59,753 nucleotides of DNA, from the UHGV virus genome UHGV-0209512; one strand, given 5' to 3'. The stretch is from a virus. The translations under genes and the position numbers were made by a program. The notes beneath the pieces are model-generated. The model made no database searches, was not told the origin of the DNA, and saw nothing but the letters and a program-made list of their open reading frames with translations. Positions 4,380 through 19,836 of the stretch are shown in pieces (the stretch's first letter is position 1; the number at the start of each line of letters is the position of its first letter).

Positions 4380-4444
4380 TGGAATACCTTAGAAAAATAA
4401 GCCGTCTTTCGACGGCTTATGGACACTACAGAGGGAGGGTTAAC

Positions 4445-11984: not shown

Positions 11985-11988
11985 CAAT

Positions 11989-12008
11989 AAAGGGCCGAAA
12001 GGCCCTTT
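11989..12008. terminator. Bidirectional rho-independent terminator AAAGGGCC-GAAA-GGCCCTTT
   Basis: Perfect 8-bp stem with GAAA tetraloop, flanked by A-run upstream and T-run downstream; lies between convergent genes 11760..11984 (+) and 12011..14347 (-). Confidence 0.6.
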
Positions 12009-12010
12009 AT

Positions 12011-14347
12011 TTATTTGCTTAAGTCTTTGAAAACACTCTCAATTGACTCGTCTATATACCATCCCAACCCCCTGAAATTACGCTTTAACGCATCCTCACG
12101 TGTGACTGGGACGAGTGCTCCCATATCTACAAGTTGTTTGATAGTGAGGTCTGTTGCAGTACCTGCTCCCATCCTGTGATTCTTGAATGCTGCTAACCCG
12201 TAGGTTCTGCGTGTGATAGTTGCCTTCGGAATAATACCGTCAACTCGCAGCTCCTTACGATCACATGCAATTTTACCGCCAAGATAGTCTTTGCAGACCT
12301 GACAGATAGCCTTCACACGCGTTTCATCATCGCCGCCAATAGTACCTTTTTCCCATGCATTGATCATGATGTCCTGTCCGTGCGTAACAAAATCTACCGC
12401 CCATTGCATGTGATTAGGCTGAACGACAGGATTGATCCAGTTTTCCCCAACTGCTAACAGGGATGCAAGACGCAGAGCTTTAAGGTGCGCACGGTTCCAC
12501 GGCTGACGAATAGCTTCGTCTTTAGTTGCGTTAATGTGTTCATCACATAACAAGTTAAACTCCCGTTCAATCCTTTCCGCTTCAGGGCTTAACTGGACAG
12601 TAACGGTCTGGAACTTTGCCATTGTCACCAACGTGTGGTTAACGAGATGGCAGACCATGTCCTTTAATTGTTGTGGCATTGTGATTTCAGGATTTTCGTT
12701 TGCAGGAACACGATCCCCTTCATATTGCACAATGTGGAAACGGGACAAGAAACCGTCTTCCATCATTTCACGGGTTAATGCTTCAAAGAATGTGTCCGGT
12801 GTTGTTTCGCCCAGCACGCTAAACGCCACCCCGTCCATCGTTTTGGTATTATTAGCCTTATCAGAATATCCGATACCGCCAACAACATCCATAGCACCAG
12901 ATTTTTGATACACATCTGTGATAGTTTGCTTCAGGGTGTAGTTTGCAGTGCCAGGTTGAGCTGTTGCCATACCTTTAATGGTTTTACCGAACTCGCCGTT
13001 AATATTCACAAACGAAGTGTGATCCGCAAAACTTTTACGCAAGGCAGGGCCGGAAGCATAGTTAGTCATGTCTACAAATTCATGCACTTGCGGTAATTGC
13101 TCGCCCACTTGCTTACAAATATAACTGGGCCCAGCGTGAAGCATTTCTTTACCCACACCTGATCGGGCAATAAGCACAAAGTAACCGTTTAACCCTGTGT
13201 TGGTGATAGTATTCCACACCTTGCCGCATACGCCGGATAAGAATGCTAAAGATGCAGTGATTGCAATTTCTTTTACCGGACGCTGCGAGGCCTTGTAGAT
13301 ATACTTCGCAAGCTCACCAGCAAGTCCCGGCGGCCATTCAATAGCTGTTGCATCAATGGACGTACTTTCTGCAACTACTATTTCACCGGACGGGCTGACT
13401 GTGGTTACAGGCGTTTCCGTTACCTGCTGCATTGCACTGTGTGCGGCTTGCATACGGGCAGCGTAATCCCGCGCCAGCGCCGCTACGTTTTCCTGGGCAA
13501 TGCGCTCACGCTCCATACGACCGCGGCACATGCGCAAACAACGGTCAATATGAACATTGTTCTTGTTAGCCTTCTCACGTTTGCCCAGTGCGCTGTAACG
13601 GAACAGACGACGACATTGCTCATTACTTTCTGTGTAGAATGCATACATAGAAATAAGGGCAAGGTCTGCTTCAGACTGGGAAGGGAATCCCATTTCAACC
13701 CATTCGCCATTGAAGAGGCGTGCATACTTATCGCCGTTGTCTGCTTCAAGGGCACGCTGGTGAATGGTTGCATCGTCTTCTACCGGATCTTTTTCTACCA
13801 GTTCAATTTCATATGTCTTGCGCTGAAGATCAATTTCATTCACAAGCATAGTAAGGTAATGATCACGCTCTGCAACTGGTTTGTTATAGACAGGATTACC
13901 CGTGCAGATAATAAAACGCTCCTGACTATAAACCTCGACACCATCACGTCGGCGTCCTTTACCGATATTTCCTCTTAACCACAGGTGGACACCCAAGCCT
14001 GACCGACTTACTTCAGTGTAAGTATCGAACGCAGTCATGATCTGTTCGAAGCGACGCAACTGTTCCGGCGTTGTGTGCTTCTTGGGATCCGGTTCATTGG
14101 TTGCGTTCTTCACATCCAGGTCGATGCAGGTGAACGGGTCTTGCGCAGTAAGCACAAAGCCAATATAAGGTTTGTTGAAATGAGCGGCACAACCTTTGGC
14201 AGCTTCAAACGTCATAAGCATATCCGGATCGGTAACATCCGCAGCCATCAGGCGCCCGATATCGTTGTCCCACACAAGCGGCTTTTTGTCCGCATCGGCG
14301 ACAGCCCATTGTGGGAAAGCTTTAATTTCAGCGGGAAACAATTCCAT
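12011..14347 (-). CDS. Replication protein with N-terminal primase-polymerase-like domain (778 aa)
   Basis: N-terminal region with GFVLTAQDPFTCIDLDVKN resembles prim-pol catalytic motifs; central P-loop-like ARSGVGKE is not a canonical Walker A; adjacent to the AT-rich repeat region. Confidence 0.5.
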   Translation of the reverse strand: MELFPAEIKAFPQWAVADADKKPLVWDNDIGRLMAADVTDPDMLMTFEAAKGCAAHFNKPYIGFVLTAQDPFTCIDLDVKNATNEPDPKKHTTPEQLRRFEQIMTAFDTYTEVSRSGLGVHLWLRGNIGKGRRRDGVEVYSQERFIICTGNPVYNKPVAERDHYLTMLVNEIDLQRKTYEIELVEKDPVEDDATIHQRALEADNGDKYARLFNGEWVEMGFPSQSEADLALISMYAFYTESNEQCRRLFRYSALGKREKANKNNVHIDRCLRMCRGRMERERIAQENVAALARDYAARMQAAHSAMQQVTETPVTTVSPSGEIVVAESTSIDATAIEWPPGLAGELAKYIYKASQRPVKEIAITASLAFLSGVCGKVWNTITNTGLNGYFVLIARSGVGKEMLHAGPSYICKQVGEQLPQVHEFVDMTNYASGPALRKSFADHTSFVNINGEFGKTIKGMATAQPGTANYTLKQTITDVYQKSGAMDVVGGIGYSDKANNTKTMDGVAFSVLGETTPDTFFEALTREMMEDGFLSRFHIVQYEGDRVPANENPEITMPQQLKDMVCHLVNHTLVTMAKFQTVTVQLSPEAERIEREFNLLCDEHINATKDEAIRQPWNRAHLKALRLASLLAVGENWINPVVQPNHMQWAVDFVTHGQDIMINAWEKGTIGGDDETRVKAICQVCKDYLGGKIACDRKELRVDGIIPKATITRRTYGLAAFKNHRMGAGTATDLTIKQLVDMGALVPVTREDALKRNFRGLGWYIDESIESVFKDLSK

Positions 14348-17127: not shown

Positions 17128-17376
17128 TTATTGCACGATTGCTACGAAATCGGCGGTTGCGATATCCATGCTTGCGAAAGCAACGATGCCATAGTCGGTG
17201 TCGTTTTCGGCGTTAAACGCTTTGAGGAACTGCTGTACTGCTGCTTTATGGTTAAGCGTTACGTCGATGGCATAGTCCCAGCTATACACTTTGCGGCGAC
17301 CGAAACCTTTAACAGCAATGCGTGCGCTTTTAGTGTTAGTTGGTGCCAAAAATTTGGTGACGATAGAAGTAGCCAT
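17128..17376 (-). CDS. Hypothetical protein (82 aa)
   Basis: ATG 17374-17376 preceded by GAGGA. Confidence 0.5.
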   Translation of the reverse strand: MATSIVTKFLAPTNTKSARIAVKGFGRRKVYSWDYAIDVTLNHKAAVQQFLKAFNAENDTDYGIVAFASMDIATADFVAIVQ

Positions 17377-17444
17377 GATGTAATCCTCGTTTTGTTTAAG
17401 TTGACTTATTATTGCCCGGTCCGATCAACTGGGCAAGATATAAA

Positions 17445-17612
17445 TCAACTATTTTCGCTTACATAATCCAGTGCGGCGCTCAGGAACTCGAACTCACCGC
17501 GATTGTACATGCTGATAGCCCATTCGAGCTGGTCGCGGGTAAGGTGACGATATTCGTTACGAATGCTATAGCTGCGACCGAAGTACATAATAGCGAAGTA
17601 TGAGCTGGACAT
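17445..17612 (-). CDS. Candidate small protein (55 aa), first gene of the leftward early block
   Basis: ATG 17610-17612 preceded by GGAGG (6-nt spacer), TGA at 17445-17447; preferred over the overlapping low-complexity track ORF 17480..17833. Confidence 0.4.
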   Translation of the reverse strand: MSSSYFAIMYFGRSYSIRNEYRHLTRDQLEWAISMYNRGEFEFLSAALDYVSENS

Positions 17613-17639
17613 AACGCGCCTCCAAGTGTGGTTAAGAAG

Positions 17640-17940
17640 TAGTACCGTGTTGCTATGGGTACATAATAGCGATGCATTGTGATATTGAATAGGCCAAACG
17701 TGCTATTTTGATCTTGTTTTGCATCTAGTGAAAAATTATGCTTGCCATGCATGTTTAGCACTAATGGCCTAACTAACATCACATGAATTGCACTATACGC
17801 GCGGGCACGCACACATACATATAAAGCTGCCAAATATTTTTATAAAAAGATGCAAAAAGGTGTAGACATATGATCAATCTAACCCTACTATATACACATA
17901 CCGCAACGGTACTACAAATTAACTCAAAGGGGTTTACATC
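17640..17940. promoter_or_regulatory. Divergent intergenic region separating leftward and rightward gene blocks
   Basis: About 300 bp AT-rich gap between the first leftward gene and the first rightward gene; individual -35/-10 boxes not assigned with confidence. Confidence 0.4.
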
Positions 17941-18144
17941 ATGTCTATTCGTAACGTTATCTGTGTAATGGTTGCAAACAATAATTTTGGTTTCGTAGAA
18001 GGTGCAGAGTATAAAATGGATCTTAAAACTCGTTGCATTATTAAAGGTGAAGAGGAATGGCGTGCAGTAGTAGAAGATTGCGGAGATATCTACATCTATA
18101 GTTCTGATACAATGAAAACTATCGCTGTCTTCGAATTTAACTAA
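17941..18144 (+). CDS. Hypothetical protein (67 aa)
   Basis: First rightward ORF; AAGGGG upstream of ATG. Confidence 0.45.
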   Translation: MSIRNVICVMVANNNFGFVEGAEYKMDLKTRCIIKGEEEWRAVVEDCGDIYIYSSDTMKTIAVFEFN

Positions 18145-18212
18145 GCTAACTTATACAATGGGCATTAATACAGTGCCCATTAATAAGCTAACTAATTATA
18201 ACGAGGTGTATT

Positions 18213-18398
18213 ATGTCTACGGACACTGTGAAGTCTGTAAATAATAGCAACAGAACATTTAAAGTTATGTATTATGGTCAGGACGTTGGTCAGGTCAAGG
18301 CGCCCAGCCGTATCGTGGCGGAAGAGTTCGTCCGTACAGAGATGCAACTTGGAATCGCCGATTTTGGCGCCATCGTTAAACTGGTAGAGGTGTACTAA
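18213..18398 (+). CDS. Hypothetical protein (61 aa)
   Basis: ORF with GAGGTG RBS. Confidence 0.45.
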   Translation: MSTDTVKSVNNSNRTFKVMYYGQDVGQVKAPSRIVAEEFVRTEMQLGIADFGAIVKLVEVY

Positions 18399-18399
18399 T

Positions 18400-18543
18400 A
18401 TGCCACGCAAATACACGCTTACACGCGCACAGCACGCGCTATTATTGCAGGTTATGCGCATGGAGTACGAAGAGACTACATGGGCTCATGCTATGCAAAC
18501 TGGGCGCGAGTTCTACGCGCAATTAATAGCACAAAATGCCTAG
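18400..18543 (+). CDS. Candidate small protein (47 aa)
   Basis: ATG at 18400-18402 right after the upstream stop, GGTAGAGG upstream; below track cut-off. Confidence 0.3.
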   Translation: MPRKYTLTRAQHALLLQVMRMEYEETTWAHAMQTGREFYAQLIAQNA

Positions 18544-18601
18544 ACAACATGATCGGTCTAGTGGATACTACACACATCAACCAAACAACGGAGTAAACAA
18601 A

Positions 18602-18829
18602 ATGCGTAGTTTCAAATGTGTAAGCGTAAATGCTACTGGTAACGGTCTGTTCACAGCAGGTAATGTATATGACTTCAACATGGAAAGTTACAAAGACACA
18701 ACGCTTACAGGTGTGATGTTCGGTGGCGCTCGTGTCGTTCGCTGCCATTTAAACAAGAACACGGAAAATGAATATACCCTTATCAGTCGCTACACGGGCA
18801 AGCGGTTAGCTGTGTTCCATGCAGCTTAA
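18602..18829 (+). CDS. Hypothetical protein (75 aa)
   Basis: ORF 18536..18829 trimmed to ATG 18602 with GGAG upstream. Confidence 0.4.
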   Translation: MRSFKCVSVNATGNGLFTAGNVYDFNMESYKDTTLTGVMFGGARVVRCHLNKNTENEYTLISRYTGKRLAVFHAA

Positions 18830-18856
18830 GCTATAACGCACACAGCGCCACGCTAG

Positions 18857-18895
18857 CGAGCTAATGCACAAAGGCAATGGTAATGCATTAGCTCG
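18857..18895. other. Long perfect hairpin/palindrome (12-bp arms CGAGCTAATGCA / TGCATTAGCTCG, 15-nt loop)
   Basis: Read directly; not followed by a U-tract on either strand, so not a canonical terminator; sits in a ~430-bp gap with GC-rich CACAG repeats. Confidence 0.4.
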
Positions 18896-19264
18896 GGCGA
18901 AACAGGCACACAGCGTCGCGCACAGCTCGCACAGCGCACACAGACCCACGCAGGCCCAGCCGCGCGACCCGACCCATCCTTTTCCAGGTACTTGGAGCGC
19001 TGGGGCGTGCCCTGTCCATCCTGATAGTAAGTTCTTGCCTAAATCTCACCTATCACCTTACATATCCACCTACATCCATGACCCCACCTACCTTCTTTTT
19101 GAATATATTGCGCTCATCCTTTCTAAATATATGGATTTTGGTAGTAAATTCTGAGTCGTCAACGTATAATTCGTCTTGTAGCTGCTCCATAGCTACCATC
19201 TTTAAGCGGATGCAACCAATTTCTATCAATTCACACCTGTTTTTAGAGCATCAAGGAGGTATTT

Positions 19265-19516
19265 ATGTGCGACACCAGTGCAAGCGCTACACCCAGCACC
19301 TCCAGCAATGTGGTTACAGAGGTAAATGCAATGCGATTAGGTCCATATCGCGGCTATTATGGTCGTGCTACATGGAATGACGCTACTCAACGTTTTGAAG
19401 GCTGGATTATCTGCCCGGAACGTGTTAAATTTCACTCCGTAAAAGAGAAAAATATCGTTCTTAATTTTCAAAAATGTGTCACTAAATATGTAGAGGAGCA
19501 AGAAGAATGCGTGTAG
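19265..19516 (+). CDS. Hypothetical protein (83 aa)
   Basis: Strong RBS AAGGAGG before ATG. Confidence 0.5.
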   Translation: MCDTSASATPSTSSNVVTEVNAMRLGPYRGYYGRATWNDATQRFEGWIICPERVKFHSVKEKNIVLNFQKCVTKYVEEQEECV

Positions 19517-19785
19517 AAGAGATTGTTGTAGGTAAAGAGTATCGTTTGCTGACTGATATTGGCGGTGTTGGGTATAGTCCGGGCGATGGTGTTGAGTTCC
19601 GGGAACTGAAAGCTGGTTCTATTGTTACTGTTAATAAGGTGGTGTTTGATCTGCATATCCTTTTCGGGCAGTGGAACCATACTGTAATTGTTAGCCAGGG
19701 TAGCGATGGATACAATGAAGAAGAGGATGCTTACGAAATCAGTTATACTGGTCTTGTAGGCGCCAATTTTCTTGAAGAAGTATAA
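19507..19785 (+). CDS. Hypothetical protein (92 aa)
   Basis: ORF overlapping the upstream stop. Confidence 0.5.
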   Translation: MRVEEIVVGKEYRLLTDIGGVGYSPGDGVEFRELKAGSIVTVNKVVFDLHILFGQWNHTVIVSQGSDGYNEEEDAYEISYTGLVGANFLEEV

Positions 19786-19836
19786 TTATCAATCTATAAT
19801 GGGCTCTAAGGAGCCCTTAATTATCTGGAGGTTGTT

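Follow-up and report, generated by a model that had tools for sequence, protein, structure and literature searches.

A conserved, modular non-coding gap in the rightward gene array of Seuratvirus phages as a possible boundary between two transcription units

The closest described counterparts of the region considered here are found in phage lambda and in bacterial messenger RNA (mRNA) leaders of the ompA type. In lambda, the tR1 region with its Rho-utilisation (rut) sites lies beside nutR, in the order cro-nutR-tR1-cII, and rutA and rutB flank boxB. RNA that is C-rich, G-poor, free of ribosomes and unstructured is the textbook substrate for Rho loading, and 5' stem-loops such as that of the ompA leader protect an mRNA from 5'-end-dependent decay. 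The region in question is a 435-bp gap between genes (positions 18830 to 19264) in the virus genome UHGV-0209512. The window, i.e. the whole stretch of DNA that was analysed, comprises 59,753 nucleotides (nt) and corresponds to a complete genome, about one genome length, of the genus Seuratvirus (Queuovirinae).

Like the lambda rut region, the gap offers an untranslated, C-rich, G-poor stretch, predicted to be unstructured, directly after an early gene, and like tR1 it holds a hairpin embedded among C-rich repeats upstream of the ribosome-binding site of the next gene. It differs from tR1 in being longer (about 250 nt), in having invariant, rigidly spaced blocks and in a hairpin that is not conserved; a role of Rho is suggested here by composition. 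Furthermore, no boxA was seen by eye and no known N-like antiterminator was noticed, no systematic search having been made for either. The right part of the gap shares with ompA-type leaders, as they are generally known, a perfect or near-perfect -10 hexamer, a hairpin that follows 5 to 7 nt later in six lineages and a strong Shine-Dalgarno sequence. It departs from them in its weak -35 hexamer (TAGnAA), in a fixed geometry that extends upstream to about -95, and in a second hairpin, CATCTTTAAGCGGATG, of invariant sequence.

The gap is conserved, modular and non-coding, and we give an even chance to the view that it is a boundary between two rightward transcription units, with three working parts. 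Its right third (19094 to 19264) is probably the start of the next unit, consisting of a promoter and a structured leader. The left and middle parts (18830 to 19093) may, more tentatively and on the strength of their composition, form the Rho-loading tail of the preceding cassette. In such an arrangement, Rho would release early rightward transcripts before they overrun the promoter, and a hairpin located behind the preceding stop codon would, where present, serve as a block to 3' exonucleases or as a stability element for the trimmed early mRNA. The new transcript would begin near 19177 with a 5'-terminal stem-loop (SL1), followed by a small second stem-loop (SL2) and the strong Shine-Dalgarno sequence; by analogy with known leaders, SL1 would shield the mRNA from 5'-end-dependent decay. 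The first-pass annotation had proposed a transcriptional switch point, a processing site or a small RNA. The switch point is partly supported, namely by the conserved promoter-like site and its leader, by the Rho-type tract and, in an alternative left allele termed A', by a terminator-like hairpin accompanied by a promoter. It does not qualify as an intrinsic terminator, a member of an Rfam family, a globally structured RNA, a protein gene or an indispensable origin. Promoter and leader are of an ordinary type, and the region as a whole adds a further instance to a class of elements already known. It is here that the rightward arm passes from its small early cassettes to the genes that follow.

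Megablast finds the region at 93–97% identity in the Escherichia phages Greed, Seurat, CAjan and slur01 and in the BASEL phages SeppeHuegi, KurtStettler, VogelGryff and WildeMaa, all of them members of Seuratvirus. Genes for replication and nucleotide metabolism are transcribed leftward and occupy 1–17.4 kb and 49–59.7 kb of the window; they encode a helicase, a Cas4-type exonuclease, SSB, Sak4, a ligase, RNase H, a 778-aa NrS-1-like primase-polymerase/helicase and a family A polymerase. The rightward genes cover 17.9–48.6 kb. The gap lies about 0.9 kb inside this rightward block, behind four small open reading frames (ORFs), the stop codon of the preceding one ending at 18829, and separates small promoter-led cassettes of the array. 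Apart from it, the rightward block has just one non-coding stretch of more than about 125 bp, namely the divergent promoter region at 17377–17940.

Seven lineages were compared. The divergent ones include Salmonella phage STP-SP5 and Hafnia phage yong3, which were recovered by distant blastn, contig L034 from a pattern scan of metagenomes, and the contigs L048, L049 and L050, which encode homologues of the downstream protein. A 17-mer scan of viral contigs returned three real relatives and four chance matches. The metagenome scan yielded one new divergent lineage, further close relatives (some with the A' allele) and five matches without flanking similarity, while the scan of genome contigs gave a single match in a Saprospiraceae metagenome-assembled genome, which was taken as chance without inspection of its flanks. 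Protein-anchored scans of viral contigs brought no further relatives; a large protein search added three lineages. An origin from the host finds no support in 5,426 E. coli genomes, in which the gap has no similarity. The sister genera Nonanavirus and a Klebsiella phage have another gene order and no equivalent gap. Literature searches revealed no account of this region and no Seuratvirus transcriptome, and a search for tRNA and tmRNA genes returned none.

The first-pass annotation had left conservation among relatives to be checked; the gap is kept in all seven lineages, at 54–79% identity. It aligns to the divergent lineages at 70–72%, compared with 73–81% for the flanking genes, and it aligns better than the divergent promoter region, which hardly aligns to these lineages. 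Among the E. coli phages of the clade, 19093–19264 has a nucleotide diversity of 0.017 and the left module one of 0.063, with values of 0.026 and 0.090 at the second and third codon positions of the adjacent gene.

The right third is the part with the best support. Its promoter-like site P_B (Table 1) has all six consensus bases in the -10 hexamer at 19165–19170 and three of six, relative to TTGACA, in the -35 hexamer. In six of the seven lineages, TATAAT or TATACT stands exactly 10 nt past TTCTGA, with TAGnAA 17 nt upstream; the combination TTCTGA-N10-TATAAT is unique in the genome. A -35 of the TAG type recurs at other promoter-like sites, i.e. TAGACA-17-TACTAT at 17863, TAGACA-17-GATACT at 18541 and TAGCCA-18-TATAAT in the A' allele. 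Phage yong3 is without a canonical -10 here, and its succession of TATACT, 6 nt and hairpin is displaced by about 50 nt downstream. The segment that reaches from 5 nt past the -10 to the invariant block CATCTTTAAGCGGATG measures 19 to 49 nt and consists of unrelated sequences, each of which folds into a single hairpin, SL1. This hairpin ranks in the top 1–6% of same-length windows of each locus (Fisher p = 1.8e-5) and keeps its start 5–7 nt past the -10 in six lineages. G.U pairs that occur in some lineages mark SL1 as a feature of the + strand. A Shine-Dalgarno sequence follows about 10 nt past CATCTTTAAGCGGATG in most lineages, and the very strong ribosome-binding site reported for the window by the first-pass annotation is indeed there, as AAGGAGG 5 nt before the ATG. 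Promoter and leader together are a well-defined object for timing studies in the Queuovirinae, a group used in screens of defence systems (BASEL phages).

Table 1. Positions of the features of the gap, in window coordinates.
Feature	Start	End	Strand	Remarks
Left boundary block ATAACGCACACAGCGCC	18833	18853		From alignments; conservation begins here even where the upstream gene differs
Perfect hairpin	18857	18895	+	Arms CGAGCTAATGCA (18857–18868) and TGCATTAGCTCG (18884–18895); 12/12 paired; 15-nt loop
Tandem (G)CACAGCG(C) units, module A	18905	18951		2–4 copies; spacing 9–14 nt; GC-rich
Rigid module M1	18967	19050		CCCGACCCA, GGTACTT, TCCATCCTGATAGTA, AAATCTCAC; fixed spacing, variable sequence between
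C-rich, G-poor tract, candidate rut site	19040	19100	+	Untranslated; predicted unpaired; four CACCT
Invariant block CCCCACCTACCT	19082	19093		Constant distance of 83 nt (66 + 17) to the -10 downstream, in six lineages; HNH cassettes of variant phages have their left junction here
AT-rich spacer, UP-element-like	19094	19141		Constant length, variable sequence; two 14-nt CTTTyTrAATATAT copies in the window-type clade
Leftward promoter-like site P_L	19135	19162	-	TTGACG-16-CAAAAT; 9/12; interdigitates with P_B
Rightward promoter-like site P_B	19142	19170	+	TAGTAA-17-TATAAT; predicted start near 19177–19178
Leader stem-loop SL1	19178	19196	+	GTAGCTG..CAGCTAC type; predicted 5' end of the P_B transcript
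Invariant block CATCTTTAAGCGGATG, small hairpin SL2	19197	19212	+	Directly after SL1; identical in 6/7 lineages
Shine-Dalgarno AAGGAGG and ATG	19253	19267	+	AAGGAGG 19253–19259, 5 nt ahead of ATG 19265; 83-aa gene (phrog_24875)

Upstream of P_B, conserved blocks follow one another at fixed distances, even where the sequence between them varies among lineages. Counted from start to start, CCCGACCCA and GGTACTT are 19 nt apart and GGTACTT and TCCATCCTGATAGTA 28 nt; farther right, 66 nt separate CCCCACCTACC from TCTGA and 17 nt separate TCTGA from the -10. The stretch TGTCCATCCTGATAGTA at 19013–19029 is unique in the genome, as are all blocks of the gap that were searched for elsewhere in it, for example as a shared late-promoter motif. 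Such fixed geometry suggests contacts between DNA and protein, e.g. with promoter regulators, and the upstream blocks may most simply be read as protein-contact sites that regulate the promoter. The motif CCAyC(C)T recurs within the invariant blocks (CCCATCCTTTT at 18973, TCCATCCTGAT at 19015, ACATCCATGA at 19071, CCCACCTACCT at 19083 and CTCATCCTTTC at 19113); it may be a repeated contact motif. Its CATCC copies lie 42, 56 and 42 nt apart in the window. The two modules of fixed geometry, 85 bp and 95 bp long, show a conservation like that of coding DNA. Binding of an early phage protein or of a host factor, if it occurs there, would make them the defining element of the early-to-middle switch in this genus.

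The candidate rut site stands out by composition. Between 19045 and 19124 the + strand counts 30 C against 4 G. No other 80-nt window of the genome shows so extreme an excess of C over G, which lies about 4.9 standard deviations above the rightward gene block. Four CACCT repeats in a pyrimidine-rich tract, as described in the first-pass annotation, fall within 19047–19089, a genome-wide maximum, with at most two elsewhere. Local folding assigns 19033–19092 a mean unpaired probability of 0.74, compared with 0.45 overall, which is rank 2 in the 30.7 kb of rightward RNA. The sequence features expected of a Rho site are present together: 435 nt of untranslated RNA, of which at least 70–80 nt are needed, a C-rich and G-poor composition, and little structure. 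The maximum of C minus G of the locus also lies in the gap in STP-SP5, yong3 and L034 as well as in SA126VB, Skure and WildeMaa, and even in a 640-bp gap of Providencia phage PSTCR7 that cannot be aligned to it. From the start of TCCATCCTGATAGTA to the start of CCCCACCTACC, the tract measures 47 to 97 nt in the different lineages. It remains G-poor throughout despite its variable length and sequence, which points to selection on composition.

The gap of PSTCR7 (L023, 717–1361; also in PSTCR4, L024; genus Craquatrovirus) is a gene-free stretch in an equivalent early array. It contains a bidirectional terminator, several promoter-like sites, four AATAACA-rich repeats with a period of about 30 nt and, before the next gene, a tract rich in C and poor in G. 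Its best alignment to the core of the window is not significant, with a score of 27 against 20±2.4 (maximum 29) for shuffled sequences.

The gap is assembled from exchangeable modules. BLAST comparison with relatives reveals four module combinations, all of them in viable phages; GottfriedDienst, for instance, pairs A' with B, and WildeMaa pairs A with the HNH cassette described below. On the left, the module is either A, with tandem GCACAGCG repeats, or A', a longer unrelated insert whose carriers include SA126VB, SLUR25, Skure and Dru_SM1. The A' insert has a hairpin, CAGGCTGTACG..CGTACGGCCTG, annotated by its depositors as a rho-independent terminator (WebGeSTer, TransTermHP), and also carries the promoter match with the TAG-type -35 given above. 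In the window, the gap has CGCACACAGCG-like units at 18837, 18905 and 18935; two further units, of the form CGCACAGC, lie at 18919 and 18928. The cluster of CACAG repeats seen by the first-pass annotation is thus present and constitutes a genome-wide maximum, with four CACAGC within 120 nt and at most two, on either strand, elsewhere. On the right, the window has module B, the alternative being an HNH homing-endonuclease cassette. Five relatives (WildeMaa, Skure, Dru_SM1, SA80RD and phiG7) carry the HNH gene at the right edge of the core, as at an occupied homing-endonuclease insertion site. Compared with them, the window represents the empty allele, a relationship that explains the mosaicism but not the function of the region. 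The cassette, which comes with a promoter-like site of its own, TTTCTA-17-TAAAAT (by eye), begins directly after CCCCACCTACC and shortens the next gene by its first 22 codons. It occupies 2158–2760 in L008, 1863–2460 in L015, 2382–2988 in L011 and 2199–2831 in L012, corresponding to about 19093–19330 of the window.

Only the first approximately 58 nt of the gap and the core at 19007–19092 are present in every module combination. Phages Skure and Dru_SM1 have neither A nor B, which rules out both modules as cis elements that the phage cannot do without, an origin for instance. Judged by sequence, the substitute of each replaced module supplies signals for termination or initiation. The module structure (A or A', universal core, B or HNH) shows where recombination and homing endonucleases remodel these genomes and which of its parts the phage can exchange and still survive. 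In WildeMaa, a run of at least 12 C marks the left junction of the cassette, and the HNH-carrying genomes are without the 20 nt CTATCCACCTACATCCATGA located between two CCACCTAC repeats. A 31-nt insertion, AACTCGTCAACTATGTTGTTGCCGACATACA, occurs at window position 19046 in SeppeHuegi (L006, about 2146–2176) and in two metagenome contigs (L026 and L037). It accompanies the TCCTTGTTTGAAAATCT form of the core, which is common to distant lineages.

Several points weigh against a boundary formed by a Rho-dependent tail and a new promoter. The -35 hexamer of P_B, with its three matches, leaves the site off the list of a promoter scan that requires four of six matches per hexamer, and all calls of promoters and terminators rest on arguments from consensus or structure. 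Rho loading needs composition rather than sequence, but the gap has blocks that are invariant over 10 to 17 nt, with spacings of 19, 28 and 66 nt that hold across lineages. The strand asymmetry of the tract would equally be expected if the segment were transcribed leftward. In the A' allele, the promoter lies upstream of the C-rich core, which places the core in a leader instead of at the end of a transcript. The 12-bp hairpin of the window is not conserved across the genus. Finally, the conserved segment is framed precisely by the leftward promoter-like site P_L on one side and, on the other, by a minus-strand hairpin that has a U-rich tail.

The last point leads to the strongest alternative, which we consider doubtful but possible. 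According to it, 18830–19128 would be the gene for a leftward non-coding RNA, about 300 nt long, rich in G and poor in C, running from P_L to the hairpin of the left boundary. This RNA could act through convergent transcription, through antisense pairing with early transcripts that read through, or in trans via its purine-rich blocks. The first-pass annotation's small RNA finds nothing to back it on the + strand (no Rfam match, fold signal or covariation) and survives as a candidate on the leftward strand only. A leftward promoter-like site and a terminator-like hairpin that bracket a non-coding segment inside a rightward array recall the OOP RNA of lambda. The candidate differs from OOP in its length (about 300 instead of 77 nt), its lack of coding overlap, its weak tail, the absence of a structure signal and its dispensability in variants.

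The P_L match is equally good in SA126VB. By eye, the -35 appears as.TGAC. in six of the seven lineages and the -10 has A2 and T6 in five, with the 16-nt spacer in all. In the other lineages, the left boundary block forms a GC-rich hairpin, GCGCTGT..ACAGCGC, with a weak U-rich tail on the minus strand. The combination of this hairpin with 4 to 6 U in 8 nt occurs in every lineage and in the A' allele, always on the minus strand, where G.U pairing also lengthens the stem. P_L and the left hairpin coincide with the limits of conservation. Moreover, the minus strand is purine-rich here, as is the sense strand of genes elsewhere in the genome, and conserved blocks joined by variable linkers would suit an RNA with conserved single-stranded motifs. 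However, the minus strand folds no better than shuffled sequence (z = +0.37), its covariation term is positive and it has no Rfam match. P_L overlaps the upstream part of P_B, which confounds its conservation. Its -10 is without a key base in STP-SP5 and L034, and the U-tails are weak in most lineages. There are viable phages without P_L (the HNH variants) or with the middle of the putative RNA replaced (A'), and rigid block spacing without conserved structure is atypical of an unstructured RNA.

More broadly, it is unlikely, though conceivable, that the 300 bp upstream of the promoter encode a genus-specific functional RNA of a new kind, transcribed in either direction. Transcribed leftward, it would possibly be an RNA of about 300 nt, G-rich, C-poor and studded with the Shine-Dalgarno-like sequences GGUGAU, AGGUGA and AGGAUGG. 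Transcribed rightward, it would possibly be a C-rich RNA with several copies of UCACCUyy, which resembles the 3' end of 16S rRNA (five of the seven lineages, by eye). Either form could act as a decoy, its target being Rho, ribosomes or an RNA-binding defence or host factor; the blocks would then be the contacts for this partner. Searches for RNA structure gave little. Rfam returned no match at the gathering threshold for the whole window, and a permissive search of 18700–19400 gave one chance-level match (E = 7.4). The global fold of the gap on the + strand is close to that of shuffled sequences (z = -0.71). Consensus folds of both strands have positive covariation terms and thus no net support, and structural conservation is confined to local hairpins, namely SL1 and, in two clades, the 12-bp hairpin. 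Two longer pairings were considered. All positions of the long-range pairing AGGTACTTGG / CCACCTACCT are invariant, but the pairing is broken in STP-SP5, leaving it unsupported. Pairing of CCCGACCC with a variable G-rich segment, seen by eye in some lineages and in shifting registers, was not convincing.

The perfect hairpin at the left of the gap was the centrepiece of the first-pass annotation, which described it as a palindrome without a flanking U-tract. It is present and exceeds chance: among perfect inverted repeats whose loop has at most 20 nt, it is the longest of the 59.7-kb genome, and 12-bp arms were reached in none of 30 first-order Markov genomes. Its RNA folds with -22.8 kcal/mol (z = -5.5), and four outer base pairs extend it to an interrupted helix of 16 bp. 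It is followed by GGGCGAAACAGG on the + strand and by CTAGCGTGGCG on the minus strand, neither of which contains a T/U run. An intrinsic terminator was consequently rejected for lack of a U-tract on either strand, and a terminator scan lists none in the gap. That this hairpin is the functional centre of the region, either as an RNase III processing site or as a nut/boxB-like protein-binding hairpin that controls downstream read-through, is improbable. Apart from its significance and its extended helix, the idea draws on the C-rich repeats on both sides, reminiscent of lambda tR1, and on STP-SP5, in which a different inner stem forms an equally perfect 10-bp hairpin at the same place. Besides, the three single substitutions found in the E. 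coli clade are all C->T opposite G, retaining a G.U pair on the + strand only; as a sign of + strand pairing this is weak evidence, expected by chance in one case out of eight.

Against such a central role, only the window-type clade (z = -3.4 in a 61-nt context) and STP-SP5 (z = -4.2) have a strong hairpin. It is moderate in yong3, weak in L048 (z = -1.2) and no better than shuffled sequence in L050, L049 and L034. Its left arm is an 11-nt insertion in the window-type clade relative to all other lineages, and a template-switch mutation can produce a perfect palindrome that has no function. The hairpin is therefore best seen as a lineage-specific addition and not as the core of the region, possibly serving as a 3' stability element for the preceding mRNA. 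By eye, without a pattern search, no boxA-like sequence (CGCTCTTA-like) was found beside it. It is preceded by CCACGCTAG, and the sole CGCTC stretch (19111–19115) lies about 220 nt downstream and is, by eye, not conserved in other lineages. Among the small upstream ORFs, none was noticed to encode an N-like arginine-rich protein, although no systematic search was made.

A replication origin is very unlikely. In this reading, the GCACAGCG repeats would be iterons for the NrS-1-like primase-polymerase/helicase and the AT-rich segment 19094–19141 the unwinding element, possibly activated by transcription. As in iteron origins such as lambda ori and P4 ori/crr, short direct repeats about one helical turn apart lie beside an AT-rich stretch; two to four copies occur in all A-type lineages, the AT-rich segment contains two 14-nt repeats, and the rigid spacings point to a DNA-protein architecture. 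The genome encodes, in addition to the 778-aa protein, a second helicase, SSB, a family A polymerase and RNase H and has no known origin, and the element is situated about 1 kb from the point at which leftward and rightward genes diverge. In contrast to known iteron origins, however, repeats and AT-rich part are each absent from viable relatives (the former in A', the latter together with the promoter block in the HNH variants, and both in Skure and Dru_SM1), so that only the core of about 85 bp could be essential. The repeat spacing varies from 9 to 14 nt, and the initiator gene is not adjacent, the primase gene being 4.5 kb away. In addition, conservation of the leader hairpin and of the -10 indicates that it is as promoter and RNA that the right module is read. 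Look-alikes of a DnaA box, an IHF site, a sigma-54 promoter, ops and boxA were inspected by eye only, and none is conserved across the lineages.

It is hardly credible that the gap consists of one or more real small protein genes or of a decaying, functionless remnant. ORFs of 42 to 127 aa are annotated here in six phages (Seurat, CAjan, Greed, CSP1C, SeppeHuegi and WildeMaa), and the GC-rich part is open in all six frames. The GenBank annotations, however, are mutually incompatible in strand, frame and extent (127 aa, 92 aa, 58 aa and 71 aa on the + strand, 42 aa on the minus strand), and the first-pass annotation's verdict of no convincing ORF is borne out. Open frames mapped on the alignments show no reading frame kept across the seven lineages, and single-base indels shift the frame even among close relatives. 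The sole ORF of plausible shape, 19053–19229 on the minus strand, has only non-synonymous substitutions among relatives when read by hand, a stop codon in PLYYY01 and a 1-nt deletion in CAjan. No ORF of the gap matches Pfam, coding was also rejected with PHROGs, and independent gene callers called nothing in the gap of three divergent contigs. A neutral remnant is contradicted by an identity to distant lineages that equals that of coding DNA and by a diversity at 19093–19264 five times below that of neighbouring third codon positions. At least five different spurious ORFs have thus been deposited at this place in Seuratvirus genomes, and they should be replaced by a regulatory feature.

The 83-aa protein encoded downstream of the gap is named Hfq in one record, and the product of the following gene HicB; PHROGs lists both as of unknown function, and the 83-aa protein has no Pfam match. 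Its 22 N-terminal residues (MCDTSASATPSTSSNVVTEVNA; window 19265–19330) correspond to unrelated extensions of 29 to 47 residues in STP-SP5, yong3 and other lineages and are absent from the HNH variants, which start at GTG; the 61 C-terminal residues alone are conserved. Upstream of the gap, the stretch 18524–18604 combines the promoter-like site TAGACA-17-GATACT (18541–18569) with a CA-rich leader in front of a 75-aa gene (18602–18829). The element is kept in STP-SP5, where it occurs twice (L009, 1526–1598 and 2024–2105), in L034 and in yong3, each time with a different downstream gene. By its sequence, it looks like a reusable promoter and leader cassette beside swappable small genes. Window positions 17370–18604 are 89–90% identical to yong3 (L010, 857–1907) over the divergent promoter region and the first early genes, although yong3 is only 70–79% identical to the window elsewhere. 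This pattern suggests a recent swap of the early block between hosts.

The record of vB_Eco_SLUR75 (LR025197.1) has its position 1 at about 18777 of the window, i.e. 54 nt ahead of the gap. The other linear records examined begin 5–6 kb further right, close to the terminase genes, and the start of the SLUR75 record is probably an arbitrary assembly break.

About 540 bp downstream of the gap, at 19772–19816, lies what may be the boundary of the next cassette. It combines the promoter-like sequence TTGAAG-17-TATAAT (10/12), which ends at 19800, with a hairpin at 19801–19816 that resembles an intrinsic terminator and has a T-rich tail (GGGCTC..GAGCCC). Elsewhere in the window, perfect inverted repeats of 10–11 bp with 4-nt loops and A- and T-runs at their sides (e.g. 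AATAAAGGGCC..GGCCCTTTATT) occur at 11986–12011, 49801–49826 and 4397–4420. These three look like bidirectional intrinsic terminators at the ends of gene clusters.

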